A DNA stretch of 64,000 bases from a virus, in the IMG/VR virus record IMGVR_UViG_3300045988_174823. The stretch is one strand, 5' to 3'. The position numbers and the translations under genes are program-made. The notes under the pieces were generated by a model. That model was not told the DNA's origin, ran no database searches, and saw only the letters and a program-made list of their open reading frames with translations. This document shows, one piece after another, positions 3,015-63,839 of this stretch. Numbering within the stretch: the stretch's first letter is position 1; the number at the start of each line of letters is the position of its first letter.

Positions 3015-3017
3015 AAA

Positions 3018-5610: not shown

Positions 5611-6291
5611 TCAAAATGGTAAGTCGCCCTCGTACCAAATTTCCTCAGGCGGGTTCTGTTCTATAAAACGTTGATAATTGTCCAGTGTACTTTCTAACGA
5701 TGGATAAAACCTCATGAACAACTCCCACTTAACGTCAAACATATCATCACACGATACGCGGCGTTTCATCAGTAGGCTTTCGCTATTATAGCACTGCACG
5801 CAGACCTGACGACGGCCTCGTAGTACGTACGAATAGGGAAAGTCGCGATAGTATTCCGCACCAGACGCTGTATTATACACCACATCATGGATAAACTGGT
5901 TGAACGGGTGTCCTGCGCCGAGAGGTGCCAGTAACGTATAACCGGGATTGCGGTGCATAAACTTCCGCAAATGATCGCGAAGCGCTTGTTCGGCGAAATT
6001 AAGGCCGTCATTCCCGAATTTGGCGCGTAAGTACGTATAGACGCTCTCATAATTACAGTCCTTGGAATGGGCCTGAAAATCGCTACAACGGACATTTTCT
6101 AACTCCAGGTCCAGACAATCCATGGCTATACCCAGAAAATTGTACAGAAGCCGCTGCTCTGAAACGCGCTTTGGGTCGCTATCTACAGTAAGCACCCGAA
6201 CGTCATATTCGGGTGCTACTAAAACGTGACAAGCACTCATCAGGAGATCACCCGCGTGTGGCTCGACACAGAGGTATTTTATTTTTCCCAT
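5611..6291 (-). CDS. LmbE/PIG-L-family deacetylase-like protein
   Basis: N-terminal VEPHAGDLLMSA (compare AHPDD, with His/Asp spacing conserved) and a later GAGHPFNQFIHD (compare HPDH). Overlaps the upstream gene by 13 nt. Confidence 0.4.
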   Translation of the reverse strand: MGKIKYLCVEPHAGDLLMSACHVLVAPEYDVRVLTVDSDPKRVSEQRLLYNFLGIAMDCLDLELENVRCSDFQAHSKDCNYESVYTYLRAKFGNDGLNFAEQALRDHLRKFMHRNPGYTLLAPLGAGHPFNQFIHDVVYNTASGAEYYRDFPYSYVLRGRRQVCVQCYNSESLLMKRRVSCDDMFDVKWELFMRFYPSLESTLDNYQRFIEQNPPEEIWYEGDLPF

Positions 6292-7238
6292 GGCCGTTTG
6301 TATATCTTCTCGACGCAGGGGCCGTCCTTCGATACGTCCTCAGCCATACGGCGAATTTCTGGCGTGATAGGCGGGAGCGTTTTCTTACCCATCTTATCAG
6401 GCAGGAAACCGACACGGACGCTGACATGTGTACACCCCTGACACGGACGGAACCGACGATCGTTGTTGTACAGCATCACGCGGGCAGCATGAAAGCGCGG
6501 ATGGTTCCAGAGGTCTTCGATAGGCATGTCGTGGATGTTGGCGATAGGGTACTCGCCGCGAAAGTCGTCGCAGCACAAGCACACCTGGCCGTTCCAACGC
6601 ACATCCAGTTCGCGGAACGGAAAAGTACATCGTTTGTTGTTGAACGAGTCGTCGAGCGGGAACGCTGCGCCACAGTGGTTAGCCAGACGACGCGTCATCT
6701 TGTTGGTATCGTCTTCGGCGATAGGCGGCAACAGACAGATACGGCGGCCCTGCTTGGGGTAGTAGTACGGAACGCCCGGTTCCAGCGTAACGACGTTGTA
6801 TTTCTCGATGTCGATTTTCTCGACGAAATTCCAGTCACCCTTAGCCGTATAGCAGTCCACCAGAATATCATTCATGCCGGCTTCAAAAAGACGGTCTAAA
6901 TATTCCGACGTATCCTTGGCGTGGTTCATACCGTACCCGTTGCTGTACATATGAAATACGGCTTTGGGCAGGTGTTTACGGAACGTAGCCACGATGTCGA
7001 TGAATGCGGGGTTGAGCGTCGGTTCGCCGTGCATAGCGAATACGAACTTACATTTCCACCCTACGCGGGCTACCTCTGAAGCGATACGCTCGGCGGTTTC
7101 AACGGTCATGAAATTCCACGGCTTAGTGCCTTTTTCGCGCATGCCGTGGAGACCGCAAAACGAACAACCCAGATTACACCCCTCCGTCGGTTCAATCTGC
7201 ATAGTGAACGGAGGGTCTTGTACGATTTTGTTTTTCAT
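6279..7238 (-). CDS. radical SAM enzyme with C-terminal Cys-rich (SPASM/twitch-like) domain
   Basis: EGCNLGCSFCG (CxxxCxxC) and HGEPTLNP. C-terminal CLCCDDFRG...RPCQGC. The ATG shares one nt with the stop of the MuF-like gene. Confidence 0.8.
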   Translation of the reverse strand: MKNKIVQDPPFTMQIEPTEGCNLGCSFCGLHGMREKGTKPWNFMTVETAERIASEVARVGWKCKFVFAMHGEPTLNPAFIDIVATFRKHLPKAVFHMYSNGYGMNHAKDTSEYLDRLFEAGMNDILVDCYTAKGDWNFVEKIDIEKYNVVTLEPGVPYYYPKQGRRICLLPPIAEDDTNKMTRRLANHCGAAFPLDDSFNNKRCTFPFRELDVRWNGQVCLCCDDFRGEYPIANIHDMPIEDLWNHPRFHAARVMLYNNDRRFRPCQGCTHVSVRVGFLPDKMGKKTLPPITPEIRRMAEDVSKDGPCVEKIYKRPWEK

Positions 7239-17599: not shown

Positions 17600-17923
17600 T
17601 CAACACAACAGTTTCAAAATGTCGTTCCGCGCTGTTTTACGAATTATCAATGCCTGATGAAGAAGGTCGCCCCATACCGCTATCTGGTAACCATTCCACG
17701 TGTAATAATCCGTTTGATCGTCGTACGAGCCATTCCATTCACCGTCGTGGCGTATGTCAGCGACGAGGCGTTTAAAACGCGCTGTTTCTTCGGTGGTAAG
17801 GGGTGATATGAAAGTGCCGACGACTACTAATCGTGCGGCACTTGTGGAAAGATCATCGGCCAAAATCTGAAAGTCGATGCCCATAAAATCGCCCGTTTCC
17901 AACGGCGTGTGAAAGGTTATCAT
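17600..17923 (-). CDS. hypothetical protein
   Basis: 107-aa ORF, 4-nt overlap with the upstream gene. Confidence 0.5.
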   Translation of the reverse strand: MITFHTPLETGDFMGIDFQILADDLSTSAARLVVVGTFISPLTTEETARFKRLVADIRHDGEWNGSYDDQTDYYTWNGYQIAVWGDLLHQALIIRKTARNDILKLLC

Positions 17924-18930
17924 TTGCCTATCAATTTACAAGCTCTTGGTTCAAATGTAGAGCGTTGTTTACCTTCACCAATCTTCATTTTCCAGTACTT
18001 TTGATACTCACACAGCCACATTTCCACCTGGTGAAGTGATATCTCGCCCGACGGCGTGACGTAATACCCCGATTCAAGTTTGTGCCAGTGTAGGTACGGA
18101 AAATCGCCAAACGAAGATAACGCTGCCTGTGCCTCATCACGCAGGCGATATATACCGTCAATTTGACGCTTCAACGATGGGAACACCAACCGCAGCCCTA
18201 TGGACGCACCAGGCCCCACATTGGTATAGTCATCCTGGGTAAAGTGCATGAAACGGCGATAGGTATAGCGCGGTATGTAGGTGAAGTCTTGGTAGAATTC
18301 GTGAGCGATAAATGTCGCCGACGAAGGTAACTCCTGAAGGAACTTGATAATCTGCCCAGGATCGGTAGCCGTCAACACCGTCCGCATCAGTTTACCTAAC
18401 TTACGATGAAGCGTAGGCACAACCAAATGCGTGTAGCAGTAGTCGCGCGGTTTTCCAGGTGTGGCCATCGAATTGATGAGGTAGGCCGTGGTGTAGGGGT
18501 TGTTGCCTGTGGCACGGTACGACGTTATCATTTCCGCAAAGCGGTCCTCGTCGTATTGGTTATAATCCGGAATGCCCGCTCCCCAACCGTACTTTTCACG
18601 AGCATATTCAAACGTTTCAGGGTTGTTAAAATACCGGAACACCATCATCTTCCAAACCAGATTCGTCAGCGTTAATTCGTCATCCAGCAAGATATTACGT
18701 ATCTGCCACTGCGAATTACGATCCAGTTCACGATACACATTGGTGAATTTGTAATCGCGTAATATAGGATCATCAGTCCACGGACGCGGTTTCTGATCCA
18801 GGAACCGTCGCTTCCATATCATTTGGCGCTCAAACATCGTGCGGAAGAACTCGTGATAGTGTTCCTCGCTGACGTCAAGTGCGGCGTCAGGTAATTTATC
18901 AGCCCAAGGGTAATGATCAAATTTCGCCAT
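17920..18930 (-). CDS. aGPT-Pplase / 5-hmdU-DNA-kinase helical-domain-like protein (DNA base hypermodification candidate)
   Basis: 336-aa all-alpha-looking ORF. WKRRFLDQKPRPWTDDPILRDYKFTNVYRELDRNSQW matches my recollection of the conserved N-terminal motif of these families. Not verifiable here. Confidence 0.4.
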   Translation of the reverse strand: MAKFDHYPWADKLPDAALDVSEEHYHEFFRTMFERQMIWKRRFLDQKPRPWTDDPILRDYKFTNVYRELDRNSQWQIRNILLDDELTLTNLVWKMMVFRYFNNPETFEYAREKYGWGAGIPDYNQYDEDRFAEMITSYRATGNNPYTTAYLINSMATPGKPRDYCYTHLVVPTLHRKLGKLMRTVLTATDPGQIIKFLQELPSSATFIAHEFYQDFTYIPRYTYRRFMHFTQDDYTNVGPGASIGLRLVFPSLKRQIDGIYRLRDEAQAALSSFGDFPYLHWHKLESGYYVTPSGEISLHQVEMWLCEYQKYWKMKIGEGKQRSTFEPRACKLIGK

Positions 18931-22092: not shown

Positions 22093-22383
22093 TCAACAAT
22101 CCATCACCAAATTACCTTTCAACTCCAATTCGTACAACCGTTCGGCATCAGGTTTGGCATAGCAGAATATCAGCTTACCACCACCTGCACACGCCAACGC
22201 TTGGCGATACACCTCCTTTATACGCGCGAATTCCTCACTGCGATAAAAATCATAATCGCTAACACACAACTCCCACCACCGCTCTTGATGAGACGCCCAG
22301 GCTATGACACCTGGGCGTTCGGCTTCGATACGCTTTACAGCGGCTAATAGTAACAAGGTATATTTCTGGCGATCGGCTTTCAT
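22093..22383 (-). CDS. hypothetical protein
   Basis: 96-aa ORF with an ATGA overlap with the upstream gene. Confidence 0.5.
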   Translation of the reverse strand: MKADRQKYTLLLLAAVKRIEAERPGVIAWASHQERWWELCVSDYDFYRSEEFARIKEVYRQALACAGGGKLIFCYAKPDAERLYELELKGNLVMDC

Positions 22384-22976
22384 AATGTAGCATCTTCCTC
22401 GCCGAGAGAGCGTGCCAACTCCACCAACAAACGGACGTGCACGTGTTCGTCGGCAACGATCTTATTAATGAGTTGGATAGCCAACGCGGAAGTTACAGTC
22501 GGCGTAGGGTTGTTGGCTTGAATACGCTGACTGAGTTTTTCATACGCAGAAATTGTGTCTTCTTCGGCGACGATATTAATCTGAACAGCTTCGGCTGCGC
22601 TTTTAGTCGTAATGTCCACTTTGGCTGCCGAAAATGCAGGTTGTGATACGTTACCCCCGATGTGGTTAATGAAGTCGCCTAATCGGTCGTAGTGCTTCAT
22701 CTCAGTAAGGGCGATGCCGAGGAACGTTTCGCCAATTTCGTCGAAGAGCATCCGCTGCTGCGTGTACTGGAGAATGGCCGTGAGTTCCGACGTGGGAGCC
22801 GTACCGACGTATGCCTTGTAGAACCACTCAGCCGGAACGCCGTCATCGGGTCTGGCCTTGGAAATATCAGGATAATCAACCGCGTTATTGGCGTAACGCA
22901 TCGACTCTACTAACGCGTCAGCCATCGCTTCGACGTTATCCTGTTTGGCGGGGTTATGTAAGAGAATCGTTTTCAT
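22380..22976 (-). CDS. ferritin-like di-metal carboxylate protein (Mn-catalase/CotJC-like four-helix bundle)
   Basis: Two E...ExxH pairs: SELTAILQY...LTEMKHYD and VAEEDTISAY...VADEHVHV. Confidence 0.6.
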   Translation of the reverse strand: MKTILLHNPAKQDNVEAMADALVESMRYANNAVDYPDISKARPDDGVPAEWFYKAYVGTAPTSELTAILQYTQQRMLFDEIGETFLGIALTEMKHYDRLGDFINHIGGNVSQPAFSAAKVDITTKSAAEAVQINIVAEEDTISAYEKLSQRIQANNPTPTVTSALAIQLINKIVADEHVHVRLLVELARSLGEEDATL

Positions 22977-22978
22977 GG

Positions 22979-23503
22979 CTATTTAATCGTTGAACCGAAC
23001 CCTCCGGCGTCGCGCATCGAAGGCGTCAACGTGTCGGTTTCCTCCACTTCAATATACGGCGCAGGGACGATGACCAACTGGGCTACAACGTCTCCTGCCT
23101 TAAATTCCTTGGTGCTCAGATTCACGTTTTGAGGCTTCATCCCCGCAACCTCACCGAAGACGTTGGAAAGTAATCCACAAACGCTCTTGAAGAACCTGTG
23201 AACCAGCGTAGGCAAATGCCACGTCTTCTTGTAACGAGCACGTATCGTGCCGCGGTAGCCAGGGTCGATAACCCCTGGAGCATTACACATCACCAGGTCC
23301 ATTTTTGAACAACGCGAATTCGGGACCAGCAACCCGCAATACCCCCTGGGAATTTCGACGGCGATGCCGGTATCGTATTCGATGTAATCTTCAGTTTCCT
23401 TTACGGTTACAGCCACGAGGTCCAGGCCGTTATCCTCACCACCAGGATGAGCATACGTCGGCAGTACGGCTTCAGGGTGTACTTTCTTGAATTTTACGGT
23501 CAT
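22979..23503 (-). CDS. dut: dUTPase (trimeric type) with a ~30-aa insertion between motifs III and IV
   Basis: Motifs NGLDLVAV, VPNSRCSK, GVIDPGYRGTI, GDVVAQLV and RDAGGFGSTIK. Confidence 0.85.
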   Translation of the reverse strand: MTVKFKKVHPEAVLPTYAHPGGEDNGLDLVAVTVKETEDYIEYDTGIAVEIPRGYCGLLVPNSRCSKMDLVMCNAPGVIDPGYRGTIRARYKKTWHLPTLVHRFFKSVCGLLSNVFGEVAGMKPQNVNLSTKEFKAGDVVAQLVIVPAPYIEVEETDTLTPSMRDAGGFGSTIK

Positions 23504-24315
23504 TTCTTGTATCCTTTTAAGTGTAATTTGACTTCTATCATTTCACGATCCTTCATCTCGCCACCCCAGTTGGTACACTTCTTGGTGCGGAGTGTGATGT
23601 ATTCAGGGAACGTTTCCCTTAAACGTTGTGACTCGGCGTTGGAGTTCTCGATAGTTCGGTACACAGAACAACCGCCAGCAGCGTTGGCTCCTGTCATTTT
23701 ATCGAACGAATACTGATACGAAACCACGTTATCCAACCCAGCACGACGCAGGCCACAAGCCAAGGCAAAATCCTCTTTTATAGGCCAATCACTGAACCTA
23801 ACAGGCTGGCTCAGATATTGCTCAATATTCAGCCCCCAAATGGAGAAGAACCGCCCATTAATTTGTACGTCGTGCGTCTTATCGCGGTTGAATGGCCTAT
23901 ACGAAAGAGCCGCCACGGCGTAGGTGTCCAACTGCTCCGCTACCCAGTCAAACATCATCGAATAGATGCATTCCTGGGCCTCGACGGTGAAATTGTCGTT
24001 GTTTACCACTACAGGGGTCTTGGCATCGTCTAAACGCAGTGAGAAAGACACGTTATCGTCTAAGAAAAAGACTCCGCCAAATCCCCTATCAGCGGCCTCT
24101 ACAACAATGTAGTCTCGTATGTCGCCTACACCGCGACATACCGTACTGTATTCCTCGATGGCGGCAACCTTACCGCCCCAGTTGCGTTGGTGAGCGGCCA
24201 ATTCGCCAGGGTGACAGAATACCGTTACGCGGCGACGGGCCTCAGGCGTTAGGCGCTGGAGGGTTTTCTGGCGGTCAATACGACCACGGGTGAATAGTGC
24301 TATCAGAGTTTTCAT
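23500..24315 (-). CDS. GT-A-like glycosyltransferase candidate, paralog-like to 4805-5608
   Basis: IALFTRGRIDR strand, VFFLDDNVSF (DxD-like), and a C-terminal AAGGCSVYRT...TFPEY motif shared with ORF 4805-5608. ATGA overlap with dut. Confidence 0.45.
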   Translation of the reverse strand: MKTLIALFTRGRIDRQKTLQRLTPEARRRVTVFCHPGELAAHQRNWGGKVAAIEEYSTVCRGVGDIRDYIVVEAADRGFGGVFFLDDNVSFSLRLDDAKTPVVVNNDNFTVEAQECIYSMMFDWVAEQLDTYAVAALSYRPFNRDKTHDVQINGRFFSIWGLNIEQYLSQPVRFSDWPIKEDFALACGLRRAGLDNVVSYQYSFDKMTGANAAGGCSVYRTIENSNAESQRLRETFPEYITLRTKKCTNWGGEMKDREMIEVKLHLKGYKK

Positions 24316-24334: not shown

Positions 24335-27052
24335 CTAACCTAACATATCGAATTTAAATCCGGTAGTCATACGCGACGCCGCCAAGTCGGCCAGCCAAAA
24401 CGACGACGAAATATCATCGTGACTACCGACACTCTCCAGCCCTTTTTCGGTAAAGGCAACGGAACCGAGGTCTTGGAAGATGAGGTCCTTGACCTGCTGA
24501 GAATAAACGTTACCTATCGGGATGTGGATTTTGCCGCGCTCGAACAACGTCGAAAGGTGCGGCCATCCGGTCTTCAGGTCGTACTTATCAATTCCCGTAG
24601 TGTGACCAATAACGGGCATACCCTCGGTGTCGGCTGTCTCGACGAATATCTGTTGGAATGTGTTATTCTCCATCACGATAAGGTCAGGCCGGAAGCGGGA
24701 GTTGATACGGCGCAGAACGTTCATCTGCTCGAAAAACTTGGCACCTTTTTCACGGTAGAGGTGCAACAGCCAGCGCTCGTCGGTCAATTCGTCAATACCC
24801 CATACGCTAAATACGGCGTAGTCGGCGCCGACGTTGGCTGAAATAGCGAAGTCGCACCCGACAACCACTTTAGAGAACTTAATGGGGAATTCTTCGCGCG
24901 AATCAACCAACGTGTAATTTTCCATCCGCAGTAGCGAACGCGTGAGGATTTCCATCGGGAAGATTGACGACTCGTTGGTAATCGGGCGACAAAGGTTCTC
25001 ACGCGAGAAGATGATTGAACCCTGGGTCTCCTTTTTATCCATCAGGTCCTTAAACGACCAACGCTGGGGCCAAAGGATTCGTCCGTCGGGGAAGATGGCT
25101 GGATACTCGATAACGAACCAACCGTTCTTGGTCTTCAGGTCGCCGTAAAGGTCTTCGGCGTGGAACGGCGTACCGACGACGATAATCTGGCCACCAGGTA
25201 CGAGCATATTCATGATTACGGAGTGGAAATAGTCGGTGGACTTATTTCGTTGGAGACTGGAGTAAATGACGTTGTCCTTCAAGCCGTCATCTACGATAAT
25301 CCAATACGGGTGAGCACCACGCACCGACGATCCAAAACCTTTTCCCGTCAAACGTGCTCCGTTACGGCACACGATATTGGTAGCCGACCAGTTGTTGGCT
25401 GTCGATTGGGGAAACAGCCGTTCCTTCAATATCTCGTTTTCCTCAATAGTGCCTTTCAGAATCTCCAAAAGGTCCACACTCTGTTGTAACGAGAACGAGA
25501 ACAAGAATCCGCGATTTGATGAAGCTGCCGCAGGTCGTTTCGAGTAGCGGGTGGTTGACGGCTTCTTGTAACGGTATAGCTGCCACGCGGCGTAGGCGTT
25601 GGAGAAATAGAACGAGTTGTGCGTAACCGTACCGTCACCCAGCACGAAGCGGTGGTCGCCGTCGGTGGTGATAGATATGTAGTCACCTTCACCCGCGGGC
25701 GTGATCTTCAACGACGATACCACCGTAGGGTGTACGCCGTCGATAGTGCCCCAGTCCTTGTGTGACGTCTTGGCGGCCCAGTCGGTTTGGACCTTTTTAC
25801 GAGCGATCTTTACTGGGATGCGGTCCAGTTCACCAGAAATAGTCACGCACCACGACGAATAGTCGCGGCCTAACGCTTTACAATACCGCGTTCCACCACC
25901 CATTCGGGTACAGAAGCCAAGGCTGTCGGCCAAGTTCTTCACGTCACACACCAACTGGTAGTTCGTATTACCGAAGTGATAGCCGCCCTGCCAATAGTTA
26001 CCGTCGGAATCGATCAACCCAGCCAACACCTGAAGACGAACTTCTTCGCTGTTGACGAGGTACTGCTCCGGAATGTGCTTATTGTAGAGCAGGTTGTAAC
26101 CCTTGAGCATCCTTTCCAGCGGGTTACGCTTACCGCGGCCACGAACGTCAATTCCAAGTGTCACTACCATACCATTTTGGCCATAGTGAAGCCCCAAGCG
26201 CTCGGCGTAAGAGTGTAAGTACTCACACACTTCAGGGTCGGCGGTGGTGATCTTCTGGTTGTTGGAGTTGCCGTCGCCTAACCAGTACCCAAGAAAATAT
26301 GGTTCCAACCCCACGGGCCGCGTGGGGTACTGCACTGCCACCTTGAAACCGCGGTAACGTTCCTTCACCCAGTTCGGGGTCTTGCTTAAAAGCGTCGGAA
26401 TATCAATATCCACTATCCGCTTCGACGCTGTAGCGATGGAACCGTTGCGGTCCTTCTCGATCAGCGTACAAATGTGGCGTGAGTTGACGGTGTGGCTATC
26501 ACCGCGCGACTGGTCGATACGGTACATCATCGAATCGTGGCCACGGCGCGTAGCAACCACGCGGCGGGGCTTAGAGTCGATGCCCATCAACAAGTCGCCA
26601 ACCACAACGTCTTCGACCTTTTTGATAGTTCCGTCGTACATTCGGACGGGGGTTCCGACGGCTTCGCACTTTCCGTGGTCACGCGCTGCGTTGATACACA
26701 ATTTCTTGTGGTTATGGACTAATTCACCCCATTCCAGGTGGTGCCACGACAGCTGGAAGTCAGGGATAACAGAGGTGATGAAATACGTCAAGTTGGCGCA
26801 TCGTAGGGTATCTTCTACGACGGCCGAAACGTTTTCTTCGTAGCGGGGTTTGAAGTCAATCGACGCGTCACCCGTGTACATAATACGATATGTGTCCTCC
26901 AACAGAGCGTCGAATATCGTATCAACGTCGTGTATATCGCCACTCATCATCTCATTCAACCCACGCTCGTCCATACCCTCGATTATTTCATCAACGAGGT
27001 CTAAACAAGCCAAACGGTGCGTAACCGAGGGTGCTGTAATCTGAGGTATCAT
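24335..27052 (-). CDS. terL: terminase large subunit interrupted by an intein in the Walker A motif
   Basis: Removing residues 129-479 gives NAARDHGK-SFYFS (P-loop). The remaining ~550 aa have a terminase-like layout. Confidence 0.8.
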   Translation of the reverse strand: MIPQITAPSVTHRLACLDLVDEIIEGMDERGLNEMMSGDIHDVDTIFDALLEDTYRIMYTGDASIDFKPRYEENVSAVVEDTLRCANLTYFITSVIPDFQLSWHHLEWGELVHNHKKLCINAARDHGKCEAVGTPVRMYDGTIKKVEDVVVGDLLMGIDSKPRRVVATRRGHDSMMYRIDQSRGDSHTVNSRHICTLIEKDRNGSIATASKRIVDIDIPTLLSKTPNWVKERYRGFKVAVQYPTRPVGLEPYFLGYWLGDGNSNNQKITTADPEVCEYLHSYAERLGLHYGQNGMVVTLGIDVRGRGKRNPLERMLKGYNLLYNKHIPEQYLVNSEEVRLQVLAGLIDSDGNYWQGGYHFGNTNYQLVCDVKNLADSLGFCTRMGGGTRYCKALGRDYSSWCVTISGELDRIPVKIARKKVQTDWAAKTSHKDWGTIDGVHPTVVSSLKITPAGEGDYISITTDGDHRFVLGDGTVTHNSFYFSNAYAAWQLYRYKKPSTTRYSKRPAAASSNRGFLFSFSLQQSVDLLEILKGTIEENEILKERLFPQSTANNWSATNIVCRNGARLTGKGFGSSVRGAHPYWIIVDDGLKDNVIYSSLQRNKSTDYFHSVIMNMLVPGGQIIVVGTPFHAEDLYGDLKTKNGWFVIEYPAIFPDGRILWPQRWSFKDLMDKKETQGSIIFSRENLCRPITNESSIFPMEILTRSLLRMENYTLVDSREEFPIKFSKVVVGCDFAISANVGADYAVFSVWGIDELTDERWLLHLYREKGAKFFEQMNVLRRINSRFRPDLIVMENNTFQQIFVETADTEGMPVIGHTTGIDKYDLKTGWPHLSTLFERGKIHIPIGNVYSQQVKDLIFQDLGSVAFTEKGLESVGSHDDISSSFWLADLAASRMTTGFKFDMLG
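25616..26668 (-). mobile_element. intein (351 aa) with LAGLIDADG homing endonuclease
   Basis: Starts with Cys (tgc, 26668-26666) and ends VTHN (aac, 25618-25616), followed by +1 Ser. Contains LGYWLGDGNS and LAGLIDSDGNY. Confidence 0.8.
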
Positions 27053-29067: not shown

Positions 29068-29288
29068 GGGGATGGATTAAACCTTTGATTGATGGAAGTA
29101 TGTTAAATACTTTATGGTCGGGGCGATATTTCACGCCCCGTGTTCGTCGGTTGTCGTTCCTATTGGTGCTCCCCTGTGCCGGCCGGGCGAACTGCCACAA
29201 CGATGACGAACGAAATTTCTTAAAAAGCCCCTCACCCATGGACTTTCGGGCCGCGTCTGCCGCACGCGGTTTTAATTGGGGCTTCTTG

Positions 29289-29359
29289 TTGACCCGGAAG
29301 GATTCGAACCTCCAACACCGGAACCAAAATCCGATGTGTTACCATTACACCACAGGTCA
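29289..29359 (-). tRNA. tRNA-Gln: tRNA-Gln (anticodon UUG)
   Basis: Hand-folded cloverleaf. Acceptor TGACCTG/CGGGTCA (U1-A72 as in bacterial tRNA-Gln), D arm GTGT-AATGGTA-ACAC, anticodon arm TCGGA-TTTTGGT-TCCGG, T arm GGAGG-TTCGAAT-CCTTC, discriminator A. No encoded CCA. Confidence 0.85.
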
Positions 29360-56313: not shown

Positions 56314-56961
56314 TTAAATTATATCGTTTTGTAAGTCATTAATGGCTCCTACCCATACGTACATCAGGCGTTCTTGCTCACAAATATCCGCCGATACACA
56401 CGTACTTTGTAACGTTGAAACCGCCCTACGATAGCTATCCTTACAATACGGTAATAAATCCAAAGGCCAAGAGCGGTTTCCCATCCCCACCTCACGATGC
56501 AAGAAATACAACAACGCCATCCAATCGGCCACCTTTACAATCGCGTGAGCAACGTCGTAATACGGTGCATCCTTTGAAAGCGTTTTGGCAATTACCGAAT
56601 CGTCTCCGAATTCGGCCATTACCTGGTGCGCAACAAACTCGTCCAAAACGTTACGCAGTTCCGACCCGTTATAAGCGTTATATTTAAGTTCGTGGGTGAT
56701 ATCGCGACGCAGAATAGCCTCGTCGAAGTCATGCATCAGCGCCATCTTCAGCGTCTGATACTTGAACGTAGCCACCGTATTATTATCGTCCCCTCCAGGC
56801 CAGAGATAGTCCAGCAGGCACATCGTGAAGACCGATACCTTGTACGAATGTTGCGAAACGCTTTCCTGCTGGTGGCGGTCATACTCCAACCACTGCTTGA
56901 TGTTATCCAACCGCGCAAGATGATCGCGGTTGAAGAGTTTGATTAAATCATCCTTTTGCAT
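56314..56961 (-). CDS. HD-domain 5'-deoxynucleotidase (YfbR-like) candidate
   Basis: ESVSQHSYKVSVFTMCLL and MALMHDFDEAILRRDITHELKY parallel YfbR ENVAEHS... and ...HDASEVLTGDLPTPVKY. Confidence 0.55.
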   Translation of the reverse strand: MQKDDLIKLFNRDHLARLDNIKQWLEYDRHQQESVSQHSYKVSVFTMCLLDYLWPGGDDNNTVATFKYQTLKMALMHDFDEAILRRDITHELKYNAYNGSELRNVLDEFVAHQVMAEFGDDSVIAKTLSKDAPYYDVAHAIVKVADWMALLYFLHREVGMGNRSWPLDLLPYCKDSYRRAVSTLQSTCVSADICEQERLMYVWVGAINDLQNDII

Positions 56962-56976
56962 AACCGATTTGTTTTA

Positions 56977-59022
56977 CTATTGTAATATCTCTAACCTTGT
57001 AGATTGTGAAGACTGTACGGTCTTCTTTCCAGCGAAATAATTCACACGCCCTGAAACAGCCACAATACGGTTCAACAGCGTAGCTTCGTTTTCCGGCTGA
57101 TGAAGCCAAAAGTCAGGCCACAACGTAATCTGGATGATGAGGTCGTTGACCTCCACTTGCAGTACACCGTAAGAATCGCCACCTTTGGTTTGACGTTCGA
57201 ATACGTTATTCGCACGACCAACGATACAAACCTCGTCGCCCTCGTGTTTACGCTCAAACTCGGCGGCGGTAACGTACAGCCGAACCATCCGTTTTCCGAG
57301 TCCGTATTCGTTCATCATACGTTCGTAGTCCACCTCGCCGTACCCGGTTAATTCACGCTGTTTGAAGACCCACCAGGCGTTAGTGTGAGCATCAGGCGAA
57401 GTGAATTCGTCGGAAAGCGGTTCACCGCGGCGTTCGAGATATTGCTTGACGATATCCAGACGCTGACGAGGATTGCGTATGTCTTCTACCAGATCGAACG
57501 CTCCAGCCATAATAAGACGCAACACCACAGTACGGTTTATGCCTTTAGGGGCAGAAGTTATGAAGTCCTCAAACGAGAACACTTCGCCGTGTTCATCTTT
57601 CATGGCTTTCAATAGCGTCAACGCCCGCTCGCCTACTCCCTTGACCTTACCCAGCGAAAAGAAGATACGGTTCGTCTTGGGGTCGCACGTAAAGGTTTCA
57701 CCCGAGAAATTGATATCCGGCGGACGGACCTCAATTTCGGCCCCGGTTTTCTTCATCTCCACCAAGCGATACGGGATATCGGACTCCTTCGAGGCGTACT
57801 GAAGCGACGTCGTCCAGAACTCCAGCGGGTAGTTAACCTTAAACCACTGTGACCAGTACGACATCATGGTATAGGCCACGGCGTGCGACTTGTTGAAGCC
57901 GTACCCTGAAAAGGCCAGCAGTTTGCTCCAAACCTCATCAGCCCGCGCTTCAGGTTTCTCAGTCAACCCGCGTTCGCGCAACAAGGTCGCGTATCCGGCA
58001 CGGAACTTATCGTGAAACGACTCGATAAGGTCCATATTTTTCTTCTTGATGGCGGTACGCAGGATATCGGATTCCACTGGACTCAGACCGCCTACAACGA
58101 CGGCTTTCATTATCTGCTCCTGGTAGGTATAGAGCGAATAGGTGTCGCGCGTTATTTCCTCCATACCGGGGTCGAATTTAGGCTTCCGGGCGCCATTCTT
58201 AATTTCAACGAACGTTTCGTGCGCCTTAACATCCATAGGACCCGGACGGAACAACGCCGTCATAGCGATAAGGTCGTCCAGGCTATGCGGTTTGGCCTCG
58301 CGGCAGTAGTTCATCAACCCCATAGCGCCAAACTGGAACACATCCTCGCACCAACCGCGCTGGAAATACCGGAATACCTCCTCGTCGTTGAACGGGATGG
58401 TGTTGACGTCGATTTGCTCCTTGCGGTTCTTGGCGATAAGTTTCAGAATAGATGAAAATTTATCCAGCTGGTTGAGACCTAAAATATCCTCTTTCAAGAA
58501 CCCTGACTTGTCGATATACTTACCCTCCCACTCGGAGACCAGCACACCACCCATGCGTTTCATAGGCATCCACCCGTAAAGGTCGATGGGGTTTCCGTCT
58601 TCGTCTTTCCGGGGTACGATGATAACGGCCGACGGATGAACTGAACCCGTCTTACACTGCGTAAGGGCGTATTTCGTCATGTGCACCAACTCCGGATGGT
58701 CCTGGACGAAACGGAACAATTCCCGCGACGTAGCGGCGTAGTTGAACAGGTCGCCCCACGTGTATTCTATCTGGTCGTCAATGTCCTTGGTGAGTTTATT
58801 CATCACCGCAAACGGCACGCCCATAACCTTACCAAAGTCCTTCAAACAGGTTTTCAGTTTCATGCGTGTGTACGTACCCACGGAGCAAACGTGGTCAACG
58901 CCGTAACGACGAGCCATGTACTCCTTTACCGTATCGCGGAACGCCACCGGGAAGTCGCAATCCACGTCCGGCATGCTGTCCTGACGAGCAACTTCAATCT
59001 TTTTTATTTTTAGAATTCTCAT
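56977..59022 (-). CDS. dnaE: DNA polymerase III alpha (DnaE-type), C-terminal piece starting at the catalytic PDxDxDF motif
   Basis: MRILKIKKIEVARQD-SMPDVDCDF, FRPGPMD and GYGFNKSHAVAYTMMSYWSQWFKVNYPLEFW. Its ATG (59022-59020) overlaps the endonuclease TGA as ATGA. Confidence 0.85.
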   Translation of the reverse strand: MRILKIKKIEVARQDSMPDVDCDFPVAFRDTVKEYMARRYGVDHVCSVGTYTRMKLKTCLKDFGKVMGVPFAVMNKLTKDIDDQIEYTWGDLFNYAATSRELFRFVQDHPELVHMTKYALTQCKTGSVHPSAVIIVPRKDEDGNPIDLYGWMPMKRMGGVLVSEWEGKYIDKSGFLKEDILGLNQLDKFSSILKLIAKNRKEQIDVNTIPFNDEEVFRYFQRGWCEDVFQFGAMGLMNYCREAKPHSLDDLIAMTALFRPGPMDVKAHETFVEIKNGARKPKFDPGMEEITRDTYSLYTYQEQIMKAVVVGGLSPVESDILRTAIKKKNMDLIESFHDKFRAGYATLLRERGLTEKPEARADEVWSKLLAFSGYGFNKSHAVAYTMMSYWSQWFKVNYPLEFWTTSLQYASKESDIPYRLVEMKKTGAEIEVRPPDINFSGETFTCDPKTNRIFFSLGKVKGVGERALTLLKAMKDEHGEVFSFEDFITSAPKGINRTVVLRLIMAGAFDLVEDIRNPRQRLDIVKQYLERRGEPLSDEFTSPDAHTNAWWVFKQRELTGYGEVDYERMMNEYGLGKRMVRLYVTAAEFERKHEGDEVCIVGRANNVFERQTKGGDSYGVLQVEVNDLIIQITLWPDFWLHQPENEATLLNRIVAVSGRVNYFAGKKTVQSSQSTRLEILQ

Positions 59023-59772
59023 TTCTTTCTCGGTTTCATTCCATGCCAAAATCCATCGGGGAGAGAGGCGTCCTTGCAAATAGTAGCGTTTATTTCGCCG
59101 TTAGTTATCCTAACTTTGCCTTGCATAGGGTTCGTGTATCCACGTTCATACCTATCGCGTAATTTCTTTCCAAAATCTTTTCGCCGCTCCTCGGGCCAGC
59201 GATTATGCCAGTTAGGGTTATTTTCACCCTTGTATCGCCCTTTCATTTTAGCCGACAAATTTGCCTTTTGTTCAGCCGTCCATCGGTTGCCGTAGTTTGG
59301 ATTCTTTTCGCCTATGTATCGCCCTTTTAAGGTCTTCGAAATTTTTTTTCTTATAATCAGTATTATCTAAAGCAATTTGACGTTTTTGATGAATTTGCTT
59401 CATTAATTCTGGATGATTCTTGAATGTCTTTTTAAGCGACCGTGAAACTTTCAAAGCAACCTCTGGAATCAACATGGGTGAGCCGCTTCCAAACTTATTA
59501 GCCGTACCCGATAAGATATTGTAGCCAATCCTCTTATTGGTTGAATTGAGTTTCTTGATGTATAGCATTCCCCAGGCGTCGAGTTGTAACTGGGTATCGC
59601 ATACGCGGAGCGTTTCACGCTTGAAGTTCTCAGGTCCGTAATGTTTAACCGCGTTCGTCAAAGATACACCACTACCCAAATACCCGTCAAACTCGTCAGA
59701 TTCGCAAACATGTTGGCCGATATAAATCTTGCCGTTAATTAGGTTCGTAGTTTTGTAAATTATACCGTACAT
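59019..59772 (-). mobile_element. GIY-YIG homing endonuclease gene inserted in dnaE, split into two frames at an A8 run
   Basis: ORF 59272-59772 has GIIY...KIYIG. The NUMOD3-like repeats (GEKNPNYG, GENNPNWH) continue in the frame of ORF 59019-59258, open from 59366. The frames meet at sense-strand A8 (plus T8 at 59342-59349), and A7 would give one ORF. Confidence 0.75.
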
Positions 59773-61463
59773 AAAGTTCGCAATTTATCAATATCTATGT
59801 CGAGGTCTATATTTGATAAATCGCAGTCTATGTCTATCGCTTCCCCGCTTCGAAGAGGAATCTTAGTATTTTCAGGCAACTTGAATTTCCCGTATCCTTC
59901 TATTTCTATCTCCCAGAATTTTGGGATGTTAACACGCGTCTCGTTCAAGAAACGCTCAAACATCAAGTTGTATTTCAGCGGATCAACATCCGTAATATAC
60001 AGGCAATACGCAATCAGCGAACCACACACTGAACCACGGCCCGACCCGGTCATGATACCTTGTTCGCGGCACCAGTTCATGATGTCCCAAAGTATCATAA
60101 AGTAGTCGCACAGCCCGTTCGGCACGATAATGGCACATTCCTTTTCCAACTCGGCCATATAGTGGTCGAGATTATCGACTTTACCTACTAACCGCTCTTG
60201 TACGCCAGCTTCAAGTTTTTCAAAAAAGGCGTCTTCAACCGTAGTTTTTACAAACTCGTATTTCGGTAGATGGCGTATTCCGACGGGTATCTGAAAGTCT
60301 ATACTCTCCGTCAACGTAGTGGAATTAGCCATGCCATCAATTATCTTTTCGTAAAGGGGCGCGGCTACGTCCATCCACTCTTCATACGCTAAAATCGTCT
60401 CTTTTGAGTTTTTGAAATACTGGGTTGCGCTTTCGGCATTGACCACGCCTGCCACCTTGTTCAGGAGCGACTTCAGCGGAGCCTCTTCAGGGTCGAGATA
60501 GTACGAGTCGTTGATAACGAGCGGTGGTGTATCGCGGTAAAGTTTAATTTTACGGCAACGACATACGTAGGTATCAATACTTTCCAAGTGATCGCGGAAT
60601 AAGGTTTCGGACGCGTACTCCACCGTATCGATCTGGTAATACACACGGTCGAATGCGGCGTGATAGGCCGTCAGTAACCGCTTGCAACGCTCGACATCTC
60701 CCTTGAAATAGTTTAATTCACTGTCAGGCGGTATTACACATACCAGGCCGCGTCCTAACTTGTAGAGTTCTTCCGCGGGTATAAACCCCTGATAATCGAC
60801 GTTTATAGCCTTATTAACCAATAACAGGTTACGCCATCCGTGGGTACTCATGGCGTATAGCTTCAACGAAAAAGTTTCCTGAACATCAGCTGCCGGATCA
60901 TAGTTACAAACCACGGTAACGGTTTCACCGATGATAGGTTTCAGTCCCTTGCCTAAGCAAGCGGTCTGAAAGGCGAGCGTGCCAGCCAGCGTATTACGGT
61001 CACAAATACCCAGAGCCGTCATACGGTTGAATTTGGCCTTAGCAGCCCACTCTTCGCAGTTGGACGAACCGTTCAAGAACTCGTATTCGCTATGAACACC
61101 CAGGTGAACGAACGGAACCAGTTCCTCAGCCGTGCTTGTACCAAGATATTTGAAGTCGCGGAATTCGGGACGGAAAACCACAGTTTTATCCAGCCGCAGG
61201 TGGTCCTTTTTGATATTCGAGTAGTAGAACTTGCCGCCGAATTCGAAGAGAATGTATTTCACCACGCCATCGTACAGTGCGTCGAATTCAGCAGCCGTTA
61301 CTGCGAACGAGAATCGTTCGTCGATTATCTTTCCGCTATCGTCGGGGTGTAGGTACAAGAAGTCCCCTACACCCTCAATGGCGATTATGTTCAATTCGTC
61401 GTCGCGCTTTTCTTCGATAGCCAGATAGTTATCTTCCGCCCACCGACGTAGCGAGTCAGTCAT
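59760..61463 (-). CDS. dnaE: DNA polymerase III alpha (DnaE-type), N-terminal piece (PHP domain to just before the catalytic Asp motif)
   Basis: FVHLGVHSEYEFLNGS (PHP) and GRGSVCGSLIAYCLYITDVDPLKYNLMFERFLNETRV. A 56-aa non-canonical tail then runs into the endonuclease start. Confidence 0.85.
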   Translation of the reverse strand: MTDSLRRWAEDNYLAIEEKRDDELNIIAIEGVGDFLYLHPDDSGKIIDERFSFAVTAAEFDALYDGVVKYILFEFGGKFYYSNIKKDHLRLDKTVVFRPEFRDFKYLGTSTAEELVPFVHLGVHSEYEFLNGSSNCEEWAAKAKFNRMTALGICDRNTLAGTLAFQTACLGKGLKPIIGETVTVVCNYDPAADVQETFSLKLYAMSTHGWRNLLLVNKAINVDYQGFIPAEELYKLGRGLVCVIPPDSELNYFKGDVERCKRLLTAYHAAFDRVYYQIDTVEYASETLFRDHLESIDTYVCRCRKIKLYRDTPPLVINDSYYLDPEEAPLKSLLNKVAGVVNAESATQYFKNSKETILAYEEWMDVAAPLYEKIIDGMANSTTLTESIDFQIPVGIRHLPKYEFVKTTVEDAFFEKLEAGVQERLVGKVDNLDHYMAELEKECAIIVPNGLCDYFMILWDIMNWCREQGIMTGSGRGSVCGSLIAYCLYITDVDPLKYNLMFERFLNETRVNIPKFWEIEIEGYGKFKLPENTKIPLRSGEAIDIDCDLSNIDLDIDIDKLRTLCTV

Positions 61464-61464
61464 A

Positions 61465-62682
61465 TTACAGGAGTTTATTGATTTCTGCGTTAGAAAACCT
61501 TGCCGCGAAGAAATTGCGAGCCAACATCAGGTAGTCCCACTTTTCTTCAACGGATACGGTCCCTGTGATACGGTCCATCAGCACAAAGCACGACTTCAGC
61601 AACGAATCACGGTCATCCTTATAGGCACCAATATTTCGCTTGTAGAAGACGTACACCTTCAACATCTGGTAAACTACCCAGAAATAGGTTGATTTCTCAA
61701 ATACGTAGTTCTCAAACCCGGCCTCGTCTTCCAAGATATTGCCTTTTGCGTATCGCACCGCCAAACGATTTATCATCTCTTCCATAAAGGCCGTTATTTC
61801 ACACAGGCGGTTTACCGGAACCTCCGATTCGAACTTAAAGTCCATCATATACGACATCGCTCCCTCGTAATACAAGCTGCGGCGCGTATTATTGGACACG
61901 AAAAGTTCGCTCATCTGCTCGGCGATATTATTCCATTCGTAGATATGGAGCGACTGCGAGTTGTGAGTCTGAACACCTAACTCTACCCCCAAGCAGAGGG
62001 ACATTACCTCCGTCAGGAACGAGAACTGAAAGATGTTCGTTGGTAAGCCCCAGTGGAGATCATTCGAACGGTTCTGGACCGTGGTAACGAGTTTCCCATC
62101 GCGGATTTTCAACATCACCATATCGTTACACGGCAAGTCCTTCGATTTCACGCCGAGGTCAAACTTAGGATTCCAAATCGACATCACAACCTGACGTGTT
62201 TCCGGGTCAGTGCTCAGCAGGCGAATGGCTTCCTTCACCTGATCCAGGCCCGGGTCCATCGACTCACCCTCGGACGAAATACCCCAATGACGCAAACGCC
62301 AGCCGTAGGGAGCGTGGAACGTAACGCCATTATCGGAAAAATCGACCATCTTGCCGTTGAAGATCTTCAGGAACTCGACGTCCTTACGGCCCGTAACTAT
62401 CCACATAGCTTCAGCCAGCAGGAAGAAGATGTTGATGTTGCGGGCATAGCCGCCTACACAGCGGCGATACGGGTTGTTGATTATTGTCTTGACATCGAGC
62501 AGTTCGCGTACCTTACCAGCACGAGAATCCTGAAGCGGGAGCGTCGTCATCATCGTGCGGTTGATATACGGATACACCTCGGCGAACGAACCGCGCGGAT
62601 CGGTAAATACCACACGCCGCCGATAGTCAAACTCAAAACGGCTAATGCCTGTTTCGGTCTGGGAAATTGATTCTTGCTTCAT
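61465..62682 (-). CDS. thymidylate synthase-family enzyme (ThyA or dUMP hydroxymethylase) with ~130-aa C-terminal extension
   Basis: Motifs TRQVVMSIWNPKFDL, DLPCNDMVMLKI, VQNRSNDLHWGLPTNIFQFSFL and SLHIYE. Confidence 0.8.
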   Translation of the reverse strand: MKQESISQTETGISRFEFDYRRRVVFTDPRGSFAEVYPYINRTMMTTLPLQDSRAGKVRELLDVKTIINNPYRRCVGGYARNINIFFLLAEAMWIVTGRKDVEFLKIFNGKMVDFSDNGVTFHAPYGWRLRHWGISSEGESMDPGLDQVKEAIRLLSTDPETRQVVMSIWNPKFDLGVKSKDLPCNDMVMLKIRDGKLVTTVQNRSNDLHWGLPTNIFQFSFLTEVMSLCLGVELGVQTHNSQSLHIYEWNNIAEQMSELFVSNNTRRSLYYEGAMSYMMDFKFESEVPVNRLCEITAFMEEMINRLAVRYAKGNILEDEAGFENYVFEKSTYFWVVYQMLKVYVFYKRNIGAYKDDRDSLLKSCFVLMDRITGTVSVEEKWDYLMLARNFFAARFSNAEINKLL

Positions 62683-62798: not shown

Positions 62799-63839
62799 TT
62801 ATTTCTTGGCGGCCTTGGCTTTCTTAGCGGCCGCCGCTTTCATGAGCGCAGCACGGGCCTTAGCTTTGGGATCCTCGGCGGGCTCATTTGCTTCAGCCTT
62901 GGGAGCAACTTTCTTCGTAGCGGGCGCGGGTTTCTTAGCGGCCGGAGCGGCGGCTTTATTGCCGGTTGCCTTCAGATCGGCCTCCATCTTTTCGCGGTTC
63001 TTACCCAGACGCGTATCGGCGGTAGAAACGGCCGACTTGATATCGTCGAGGTAGGTCTTTACAACCTCCATCGCGTCGTTCCAGGCGATACCCTTGAGCC
63101 AGGGCAGGTTGTTCCACGTCATGACGAAGTCAAGACCATCCTCGGCCAGCTTGTCCTGCGAAGCCTGACTGCGGAACGTATTCAGGACGACGTTGGTCGT
63201 AGTGAACTGGCCGTCTTTCGAGTACACGTTCTCGAACATGATGACCACCGGATGCGAGTTGGCGCCGCCGAACTTGATGGAGATACCCTGCGACACGGCG
63301 ACGTACTGGAACTCCTTTTCAGGGAAGAACTTGCTCAGTTCCTTGCGGAGCAGGTCGAGGTGCTCAGGGTTCGTCTGAGGCTTCAGACGAATACCCTTTT
63401 CGTCGTGCTTCGAAGGCTTTTTGGTGGTCTTAGTTTTCTTGGGCTCGGCCTCTTTCTTGGTGGCGGGTTTCTTAGCCTTGGGCTGCGGCTTGGATTCCTC
63501 AGGCTCGGGCTCTGCTTCCGGTTCAGCTGGAGCGGCCTCTTCAGCCTCCTGAGCAGCCTCTTCTTCCTCTTCGGCGGCTTCCTCAGCCAGCTCGTCGGCC
63601 TGCTGCTCGGCGGGCGTAGGTTCTTCAGCCGGAGCGGCCTCTTCAGCCGAATCGCTCTCCAGTTCGGCGAACGAACCGACGATGTCAATCAGGTTGTCAA
63701 TCGTCTCCTCGTCCATGCCGGGGATTCCAGCCTGCTCAAGACGCTCAATGAGGATCTTCTTTGCCTCATCCTCGGTATTGGCGGTAATACCGAGTTTCTT
63801 CAGCCGTTCGGCGTTCACTTTCGAAATTTTAGTTGCCAT
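62799..63839 (-). CDS. protein with acidic E/A/P linker and Lys/Ala-rich histone-H1-like tails
   Basis: 346 aa. AEEAAEEEEEAAQEAEEAAPAEPEAEPEPEE followed by KPQPKAKKPATKKEAEPKKTKTTKKPSK. C-terminus AAPAAKKPAPATKK...AAAAKKAKAAKK. Has its own terminator. Confidence 0.5.
   Translation of the reverse strand: MATKISKVNAERLKKLGITANTEDEAKKILIERLEQAGIPGMDEETIDNLIDIVGSFAELESDSAEEAAPAEEPTPAEQQADELAEEAAEEEEEAAQEAEEAAPAEPEAEPEPEESKPQPKAKKPATKKEAEPKKTKTTKKPSKHDEKGIRLKPQTNPEHLDLLRKELSKFFPEKEFQYVAVSQGISIKFGGANSHPVVIMFENVYSKDGQFTTTNVVLNTFRSQASQDKLAEDGLDFVMTWNNLPWLKGIAWNDAMEVVKTYLDDIKSAVSTADTRLGKNREKMEADLKATGNKAAAPAAKKPAPATKKVAPKAEANEPAEDPKAKARAALMKAAAAKKAKAAKK

Follow-up and report, generated by a model that had tools for sequence, protein, structure and literature searches.

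A thymidylate synthase homologue of a gut phage lineage is predicted to be a dUMP hydroxymethylase, with a possible sugar branch of thymidine modification

Near one end of a 64,000-nucleotide stretch of viral DNA (IMG/VR record IMGVR_UViG_3300045988_174823; the whole stretch is referred to below as the window) lies a gene of the thymidylate synthase (ThyA) superfamily, at positions 61465-62682. The question raised by this locus is whether its product makes deoxythymidine monophosphate (dTMP), as the label thymidylate synthase given to it in public sources would imply, or whether it hydroxymethylates deoxyuridine monophosphate (dUMP), and so provides an entry point for 5-hydroxymethyldeoxyuridine (5-hmdU) into the DNA of the phage; and, in the latter case, what the phage does with the modified base. 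The best overall explanation, and one that we regard as probable, is that 5-hmdU enters the phage DNA by way of a dUMP hydroxymethylase, and that it is most likely decorated with sugar thereafter. The gene in question is:

61465-62682, minus strand: predicted dUMP hydroxymethylase of the SPO1 gp29 type, ThyA superfamily (405 amino acids, ATG start)

The open reading frame (ORF) matches the Pfam family Thymidylat_synt (PF00303) over residues 84-258 with E = 2.5e-23, and PHROG 5131 over residues 36-350 with E = 2.3e-69 (235 bits). Given these E-values, the family match is real and lies far beyond chance. An initial annotation of the window had placed the ORF in the ThyA family, with a catalytic cysteine in a DLPCND motif and an asparagine at the base-discriminating position in a GLPTNIF motif, and our alignment agrees with it on all of these counts. 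The two motifs occupy residues 182-187 and 212-218; Cys185 falls on the nucleophile Cys146 of E. coli ThyA, and Asn216 falls on its pyrimidine selector, Asn177. Both residues are invariant across 119 homologues, as are Asp182, Asn186 and Asp208, which align with Leu143, His147 and Asp169 of the E. coli enzyme. In the column of Trp80 the query has Phe or a gap, and no Trp. The protein also carries an N-terminal extension of about 35-50 residues.

Five independent tests (relatives, curated cut-offs, PHROG assignment, diagnostic residues and a tree) agree on the class of the enzyme, and on these grounds we predict with high confidence that the protein hydroxymethylates dUMP as SPO1 gp29 does, making 5-hydroxymethyl-dUMP rather than dTMP. 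Its nearest relatives in cultured phages are the classical 5-hmdU phages: gp29 of SPO1, annotated as a dUMP hydroxymethylase in the SPO1 record, is 45% identical over 197 residues (E = 8e-54), and it is followed by proteins of SP8, SP10, CP-51 and M6-like Pseudomonas phages. Overall, the lineage studied here is 38-45% identical to characterised dUMP hydroxymethylases. The query misses the NCBIfam thymidylate synthase equivalog cut-offs of all seven models that it matches, the best score being 77.6 bits against a cut-off of 327, and the score for TIGR03284 being 64.3 bits against 108.35. SPO1 gp29, M6 gp58 and T4 gp42 likewise miss these cut-offs, and a control E. coli ThyA passes with 579 bits over its full length. 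The top family of the query, PHROG 5131, is also that of SPO1 gp29, SP10 gp188 and M6 gp58 (scores of 456, 430 and 574, respectively); E. coli ThyA and T4 gp42 are assigned to PHROG 160.

The diagnostic positions are taken from a 2026 paper on phage ThyA homologues (PMC13326640), according to which Asn177 selects dUMP and an aspartate in its place selects deoxycytidine monophosphate (dCMP), Leu143, which keeps water out in thymidylate synthase, gives way to an acidic residue in hydroxymethylases, and the substitution D169N marks 5-hydroxylating enzymes. All seven of the dUMP hydroxymethylase references share the residues of the query, namely Asp at the Leu143 position, Asn at the His147 position, Asp at the Asp169 position, Asn at the Asn177 position and no Trp at the Trp80 position. 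Canonical ThyA, by contrast, shows W/L/H/D/N at W80/L143/H147/D169/N177 in five of five sequences, and its Leu143, His147, Trp80 and C-terminal lid are all absent from the query. T4 gp42 has Asp at the Leu143 position and Asp again (Asp179) at the selector position. The published E/N/D pattern is recovered in an RB69-like control, and this validates the residue alignment.

In a neighbour-joining tree with 200 bootstraps, for which the references were the seven dUMP hydroxymethylases, ThyA sequences and T4 gp42, the query and its relatives fall inside the dUMP hydroxymethylase clade with 100% support, and ThyA and T4 gp42 fall outside it. Within the clade, the query group is sister to SPO1/SP10 (74% bootstrap). 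The initial annotation had proposed such a placement against ThyA, SPO1 gp29-type and T4 gp42-type enzymes, while holding that methylation and hydroxymethylation could not be told apart from the sequence; on the latter point we differ from it, since the residue signature and the tree together predict hydroxymethylation.

The structure of the enzyme, as modelled by AlphaFold2 (AF2) from 51 homologues, points in the same direction. In this confident model (predicted local distance difference test score, pLDDT, 87.7; predicted template-modelling score, pTM, 0.91) the core of the thymidylate synthase fold extends to about residue 285-305, and a five-helix bundle, residues 289-393, stands in place of the C-terminal lid of thymidylate synthase. 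The model matches MilA and thymidylate synthase structures with E-values of 1e-17 to 1e-13. The top solved structure is the hydroxymethylase MilA (target-normalised TM-score 0.81 over 363 aligned columns), whereas thymidylate synthases align over only about 270 columns; the top viral match is a 359-residue protein of Maribacter phage Colly_1. Among solved structures, then, MilA (PDB 5b6d, 5jnh) comes closest, the match taking in part of the helical extension, but it differs from the query in its Asp selector, in its substrate, cytidine monophosphate (CMP), which it hydroxymethylates in antibiotic biosynthesis, and in an identity of only about 20%.

The C-terminal extension had been put at about 130 residues absent from canonical ThyA. 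An extension beyond the thymidylate synthase core is indeed present, but its length is nearer to 100-120 residues and it is not unusual for the class. SPO1 gp29 (383 residues), SP10 gp188 (382 residues) and M6 gp58 (351 residues) carry extensions of similar length, although those of the gp29-type enzymes cannot be aligned with the query at the sequence level. We considered whether the extension is a novel domain and rejected this idea, given that the helical bundle is common to MilA and that gp29-type enzymes have extensions of similar length. Since gp29, gp188, gp58 and MilA all carry one, the extension is a trait of the class and not a novelty.

It is important to ask whether another activity of the enzyme could account for these observations. 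That the ORF encodes a normal thymidylate synthase, divergent in sequence but making dTMP, is suggested by its Thymidylat_synt domain and uracil-type asparagine, by its public label, and by the canonical ThyA encoded in the closest cultured relative of the phage, Chryseobacterium phage MA9V-3; we nevertheless consider it highly improbable, in view of the missed equivalog cut-offs, the replaced Leu143, His147 and Trp80, the missing lid, the fully supported hydroxymethylase clade and a best structural match that is itself a hydroxymethylase. It is improbable, too, that the enzyme acts on dUMP by some other chemistry at C5, such as direct hydroxylation or a one-carbon unit in a different state. 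ThyA homologues of the RB69 type have recently been shown to synthesise 5-hydroxy-dCMP (PMC13326640), and an identity of 38-45% to characterised enzymes leaves some room for such a change; yet the position of the hydroxylase marker D169N is Asp here, invariantly so in the 119 homologues, and the remaining signature positions equal those of SPO1 gp29. Least credible of all, and close to negligible in our estimation, is an enzyme that uses dCMP and starts a T4-like 5-hydroxymethylcytosine (5-hmC) pathway. Such a pathway would suit the glycosyltransferases of the TAGT family (TET-associated GT-A DNA glycosyltransferases) that the window encodes (see below), as 5-hmC DNA is the substrate of TAGT enzymes and of the T-even glucosyltransferases, and the best solved structure is after all that of a cytidylate hydroxymethylase. 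But Asn216 is found in the query and in each of the 119 homologues, where T4 gp42, MilA and the RB69-like enzyme have Asp, and in the tree the query joins the uracil-specific enzymes and not T4 gp42.

A dUMP hydroxymethylase of the gp29 type is therefore our preferred assignment, and as such the enzyme itself is an ordinary new member of a known family. Taken alone it is one more dUMP hydroxymethylase, and the interest of the locus lies in its setting. The initial annotation had listed a dUTPase, an HD-domain protein, an aGPT-Pplase-like protein and two GT-A-like proteins in the window, a gene set of the kind seen where 5-hmdU replaces T; all of these are recovered by Pfam or PHROG matches, and the comparison with 5-hmdU phages stands. 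The genes on which the following argument draws are these:

56977-61463, minus strand: DnaE-type replicative polymerase in two ORFs (59760-61463 and 56977-59079)
56314-56961, minus strand: HD-domain phosphohydrolase, of the YfbR-like 5'-deoxynucleotidase or dNTP hydrolase type (PF12917, E = 6.9e-11)
23500-24315, minus strand: TAGT-family GT-A glycosyltransferase 1 (TAGT 1), 271 amino acids, DxD-type motif FLDDN (PF20691, E = 1e-13)
22979-23503, minus strand: dUTPase with an insertion, 174 amino acids (PF00692, E = 1.2e-11; PHROG 135, E = 1.3e-30)
22380-22976, minus strand: ferritin-like di-iron protein, at the end of the TAGT 1-dUTPase gene string
17920-18930, minus strand: stand-alone aGPT-Pplase clade 1 protein, 336 amino acids (PF18723, now HMUDK_hel, E = 4.5e-52)
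6279-7238, minus strand: radical S-adenosylmethionine (SAM) enzyme with a SPASM/twitch auxiliary-cluster domain, motif CNLGCSFC
5611-6291, minus strand: conserved alpha/beta protein, 226 amino acids, fused to a TAGT domain in a relative (locus L104)
4805-5608, minus strand (mechanical ORF to 5638): TAGT-family GT-A glycosyltransferase 2 (TAGT 2), motif VMDDD (PF20691, E = 1.6e-13)

The gene for DnaE starts one base past the end of the hydroxymethylase gene. Its two halves are separated by an ORF for a GIY-YIG homing endonuclease (59272-59772), the break falling within the PF07733 domain. Near-identical contigs carry a different endonuclease, a 250-residue NUMOD3 protein, in the same gap; the split is thus conserved, and the endonuclease is swapped. 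On the other side, directly upstream of the hydroxymethylase gene, positions 62799-63839 encode a 346-residue protein with long tails rich in Ala, Lys, Glu and Pro, resembling histone H1, for which we found no family match. In SPO1, TF1, annotated as a DNA-binding protein, is encoded near gp29. The HD-domain hydrolase is a candidate for removing thymidine nucleotides, a substrate that we infer.

Both TAGT proteins exceed the PF20691 gathering cut-off of 27.5 bits by a wide margin (52.2 and 51.5 bits), each has a DxD-type motif, and the best PHROG of both is the beta-glucosyl-HMC alpha-glucosyltransferase of T2/T6. The frame of TAGT 1 overlaps that of the dUTPase by four bases, and TAGT 1, dUTPase and the ferritin-like gene form an overlapping string directly 3' of the terminase gene. 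The terminase itself (large subunit, 24335-27052) contains an intein with a LAGLIDADG-type block, and some relatives appear to be free of the terminase intein. The ferritin-like protein may be unconnected with DNA modification: it is kept at 44-48% identity in distant relatives, in which TAGT 1 and dUTPase were mostly not detected, and such proteins have been interpreted as oxidative-stress helpers (Benler et al. 2021). For TAGT 2, the likely start is the ATG at 5608, and gene calls in relatives give a product of 248 residues.

Together with the radical SAM/SPASM gene and the alpha/beta gene, TAGT 2 forms a small cassette. The closest solved relative of the radical SAM enzyme is BtrN, the dehydrogenase of a sugar-like aminocyclitol. 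The alpha/beta protein always adjoins a glycosyltransferase in relatives. It has no match in NCBIfam, PHROGs or Pfam, and its AF2 model is poor (pLDDT 66), with only generic Rossmann-like fold matches at E > 1e-3. A PHxxD motif (PHSDD in distant relatives) suggested that it might be an LmbE-type deacetylase, an idea that found no support; a distant relative with a canonical PHxxD-type motif likewise has no match in Pfam or PHROGs. Next to the cassette, the MuF-like head protein (7238-9268) contains an intein with a DUF559 endonuclease-like domain.

The aGPT-Pplase clade 1 protein scores 177.6 bits against PF18723, for which the cut-off is 25. Its homology extends to M6 gp55 (E = 2e-17) and to the C-terminal half, residues 317-597, of the 5-hmdU DNA kinase gp186 of SP10 (E = 3.5e-28), but the protein has no kinase domain. 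Its phage homologues are nearly confined to phages that hypermodify T (ViI-like, YuA/M6-like and SP10). M6 gp55 is dispensable in the published reconstitution of hypermodification. Another linkage of this kind is found in Glutamicibacter phage Montesquieu (L200, 1-2342), where a clade-1 gene stands directly upstream of the gene for an unusually long hydroxymethylase of the ThyA type (516 residues), itself a member of the dUMP hydroxymethylase clade. Sequence searches of the PDB returned nothing usable for TAGT 1, for the PF18723 protein or for the 792-residue protein described below, and only weak matches for the HD and ferritin-like proteins.

We now turn to the genes that a known pathway would call for. 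The window covers about two thirds of a genome of about 99 kb, whose remainder we rebuilt from IMG/VR contig 170732 (loci L035, L201 and L011), 92-98% identical over the overlap; it encodes capsid, sheath, tube, tape-measure, baseplate and fibre genes, an SF2 helicase, DnaB and primase. All ORFs of the window and of this remainder were searched by BLASTP (E <= 0.01, hence at BLAST-level sensitivity) with the 5-hmdU DNA kinases of M6 (gp54), a ViI-like phage and SP10 (gp186), with M6 gp51, gp52 and gp53, and with a ViI-like deoxynucleoside monophosphate (dNMP) kinase. Only the ThyA homologue and the PF18723 protein were returned, and the N-terminal half of gp186 drew no match. The search thus found no P-loop 5-hmdU DNA kinase, no clade-2 aGPT-Pplase (M6 gp51), no pyridoxal phosphate (PLP) enzyme (gp52) and no SPL-like radical SAM enzyme (gp53); nor was a clade-2 protein seen among about 50 window proteins scanned with Pfam. 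Walker A motifs occur three times in the window, in a RecA-like protein, in UvrD and in a 583-residue ATPase, so that the Walker A scan and BLASTP, taken over window and remainder, leave no candidate for a kinase, of 5-hmdU DNA or of dNMPs, that might lie hidden in the genome. The initial annotation had remarked that the partner enzymes match no described pathway, and this proves correct.

The Pfam scan of those roughly 50 proteins, from which some small ORFs were left out, gave no TET_JBP match either, and neither a C5 methyltransferase nor any other source of hydroxymethyl-pyrimidine was found among the scanned proteins, where the ThyA homologue is the only one. After TAGT 2, at positions 636-4769, come genes for a 792-residue protein and for the 583-residue P-loop ATPase. 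The 792-residue protein has no match in Pfam, PHROG or PDB, and a kinase domain was not confirmed in it; a non-P-loop kinase may act on the DNA or on its sugars. With the DNA kinase and the clade-2 transferase not found, the known route of thymidine hypermodification, by kinase plus transferase, cannot run here at BLAST sensitivity. The pathway predicted around the enzyme is, judging from gene content, a new variant of thymidine hypermodification that dispenses with the defining kinase and transferase.

How might this variant work? The mechanism that we propose is modelled on the established chemistry of thymidylate synthase. In a first step, Cys185 would attack C6 of dUMP, and methylene-tetrahydrofolate would give its one-carbon unit to C5. 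Because Asp182 replaces the water-excluding Leu, and because the Trp and the C-terminal lid of thymidylate synthase are gone, the exocyclic methylene would be resolved by water and not by hydride, yielding 5-hydroxymethyl-dUMP and tetrahydrofolate. From the gene content, the dUTPase would supply dUMP and exclude dUTP from DNA, the HD hydrolase would probably deplete thymidine nucleotides, host or unrecognised kinases would make 5-hmdUTP, and the split DnaE polymerase would have to accept 5-hmdUTP and insert 5-hmdU for T. For the entry of 5-hmdU into phage DNA, we argue from precedent and from how tightly the hydroxymethylase and polymerase genes are coupled.

After replication, the two TAGT enzymes would most likely add one or more sugars to the hydroxymethyl group, and the product would resemble base J of trypanosomes. 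The BtrN-like radical SAM enzyme and its alpha/beta neighbour would possibly tailor the sugar further, and the stand-alone clade-1 protein would probably bind 5-hmdU in DNA. That the TAGT enzymes glycosylate 5-hmdU is suggested by their family membership, by the lack of any other source of hydroxymethyl-pyrimidine and by genomic linkage, and we give it slightly less than an even chance. The scheme in full, in which an abundant but uncultured lineage of gut Bacteroidota myoviruses swaps T for 5-hmdU and glycosylates it directly, without a kinase-activated intermediate, and in which the BtrN-like enzyme tailors the sugar and the clade-1 aGPT-Pplase recognises or flips 5-hmdU, is put forward only tentatively.

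It is useful to set this scheme beside known systems and to state where they diverge. With the Bacillus phage enzymes SPO1 gp29 and SP10 gp188, both of PHROG 5131, the enzyme shares its fold, active-site signature, length, C-terminal extension and sister-group position, the catalytic core being about 45% identical; here, however, it occurs in gut Bacteroidota phages. SPO1 itself stops at 5-hmdU, whereas the phage studied here adds glycosyltransferases and the PF18723 protein. The hypermodification systems of M6, ViI, PhiW-14, SP10 and PaMx11 (Lee et al. 2018, 2021) have in common with ours a dUMP hydroxymethylase, a nearby HD hydrolase (in M6, the HD gene gp59 directly follows the hydroxymethylase gene gp58), a clade-1 aGPT-Pplase paralogue, and the same logic of pre-replicative 5-hmdU followed by post-replicative decoration. 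They differ in their P-loop kinase, clade-2 transferase, PLP enzyme and SPL-like radical SAM enzyme, none of which was found in the reconstructed genome, where two GT-A glycosyltransferases are present instead.

Glucosylation of 5-hmC in T-even phages, similarly, combines a ThyA-family hydroxymethylase acting before replication (gp42) with glycosyltransferases that decorate the DNA (the alpha- and beta-glucosyltransferases and, in T2/T6, the beta-glucosyl-HMC alpha-glucosyltransferase), and the T2/T6 PHROG match has been noted above; but the base there is cytosine (Asp179 of T4 gp42) and here uracil (Asn216), and the hydroxymethylases belong to different clades. Base J of the kinetoplastids, made by JBP and a glucosyltransferase, resembles only the inferred end product, an O-glycosylated 5-hydroxymethyluracil in DNA. 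In the kinetoplastids, 5-hydroxymethyluracil arises by oxidation of T within DNA, whereas in our phage it would be produced at the nucleotide stage, ahead of replication, and no TET/JBP protein appears among the scanned window proteins. GT-A enzymes are known to co-occur with ThyA homologues in metagenomes, the base and the product being left unresolved (Pyle et al.), and in the literature that we searched, subscription journals lying outside its coverage, no report of glycosylated 5-hmdU in a phage was found.

The gene content of the phage fits the uncultured gut candidate family "Gratiaviridae" (Benler et al. 2021). Features held in common are DnaG, a phiST-like DnaE, SF1/SF2 helicases, SbcCD, RecA, a contractile sheath and ferritin-like proteins, as well as, in the head gene region, a glycosyltransferase that adjoins an ATPase and a large protein. 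The predicted hosts of the family are Bacteroides and Parabacteroides, and its trio of glycosyltransferase, AAA ATPase and HipA-like kinase has been interpreted as a modifier of the host capsule, DNA modification not being discussed (Benler et al. 2021). For both DnaE and the portal protein, the closest counterpart is that of Chryseobacterium phage MA9V-3, the DnaE being also near Cellulophaga phiST-type and Bacteroides DAC phages, and the portal near Bacteroides DAC phages and SPO1-like Herelleviridae, at identities of 35-41%. We looked for a near-identical cultured phage in the phage collection and found none, MA9V-3 being the nearest isolate. It has a canonical ThyA and 7-deazaguanine genes, and none of the modification genes found here; it appears to follow a different strategy of DNA modification, and no cultured phage therefore represents the pathway. 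In MA9V-3 (L191, 45868-48854), folE and queE flank the canonical ThyA, which has insertions, and a tmRNA gene is present as well.

Identical copies of the enzyme are present in 76 blocks of the public assembly collection, chiefly on contigs of 87-100 kb, and its cluster at 90% identity has 643 members. Most of these proteins sit on contigs of about 99 kb, some of them from human gut samples, and one related contig bears the label human gut metagenome. Contigs of 90-115 kb carry homologues at 50-60% identity. Throughout this broader lineage, the PF18723 gene stays between the flap endonuclease and portal genes (52-61% identity), while the surroundings of the glycosyltransferases vary. For example, distant relatives have in place of TAGT 2 a GT4-like protein of about 480 residues with weak Pfam hits (L061, 3187-4656), the radical SAM gene is variably present, the cassette by the MuF-like gene includes an N6/N4 DNA methyltransferase in one relative (L078, 1823-2530), and another has the fusion of alpha/beta protein and TAGT domain mentioned above (L104, 2477-4054). 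A second variable spot immediately follows the PF18723 gene, where one clade carries a TAGT 1-like gene (L174, 11052-11927) and other relatives a methyltransferase-like protein of PHROG 8156 (L138, 11114-12160). Through these patterns both the alpha/beta protein and the PF18723 protein are tied to the glycosyltransferases, and such variation is what would be expected of a DNA-modification island under diversifying selection. Elsewhere in the window, a single tRNA-Gln gene (anticodon TTG, 29288-29359, minus strand) lies in a gene-poor stretch in which GC skew changes sign.

Several observations weigh against the pathway as we have drawn it. The residue signature that separates hydroxymethylases from thymidylate synthases is a correlation over known enzymes and not a proven determinant of hydroxymethylation. 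For the glycosylation step, the argument comes down to membership in a family whose enzymes have been shown to act on DNA containing 5-hmC, not 5-hmdU, and TAGT 2, lying among virion genes, could glycosylate virion proteins instead. The best PHROG of the HD protein is labelled dATP triphosphohydrolase, and a dNMP kinase for 5-hmdUMP, a dCMP deaminase and a recognised dTTPase were not found among the phage genes. Finally, the proposal of Benler et al. for the "Gratiaviridae" trio would direct the glycosyltransferase to the capsule.

These points lead to the most serious alternative, which keeps the dUMP hydroxymethylase but lets the TAGT and radical SAM cassette act on the capsule or on virion proteins, the DNA containing plain 5-hmdU or being otherwise modified. 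SPO1-type phages do stop at 5-hmdU, the portal of our phage is about 41% identical to SPO1-like portals, TAGT 2 sits among head and virion genes, and in the metagenome survey of Pyle et al. most GT-A hits have no base-modification gene nearby. On the other hand, both glycosyltransferases belong to a DNA-associated family, with a T-even DNA glucosyltransferase as their best PHROG, and TAGT 1 overlaps the frame of the dUTPase. Moreover, one relative has a DNA methyltransferase in the cassette, another clade has a TAGT gene beside the PF18723 gene, and the PF18723 protein is kept across the whole lineage, which suggests more than bare 5-hmdU. On balance we consider this alternative unlikely, although by no means negligible, and we prefer the reading in which 5-hmdU enters the DNA and is then most likely glycosylated.

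The glycosyltransferases of this candidate gut family have so far been read as capsule modifiers, and DNA modification has not been considered (Benler et al. 2021). Glycosylated 5-hmdU, if it is indeed made, would add a sugar branch to thymidine hypermodification, and it would provide a first functional handle on the clade-1 aGPT-Pplase family. It would also explain the resistance of these phages to the restriction systems of Bacteroides, and would affect the sequencing and quantification of gut viromes.

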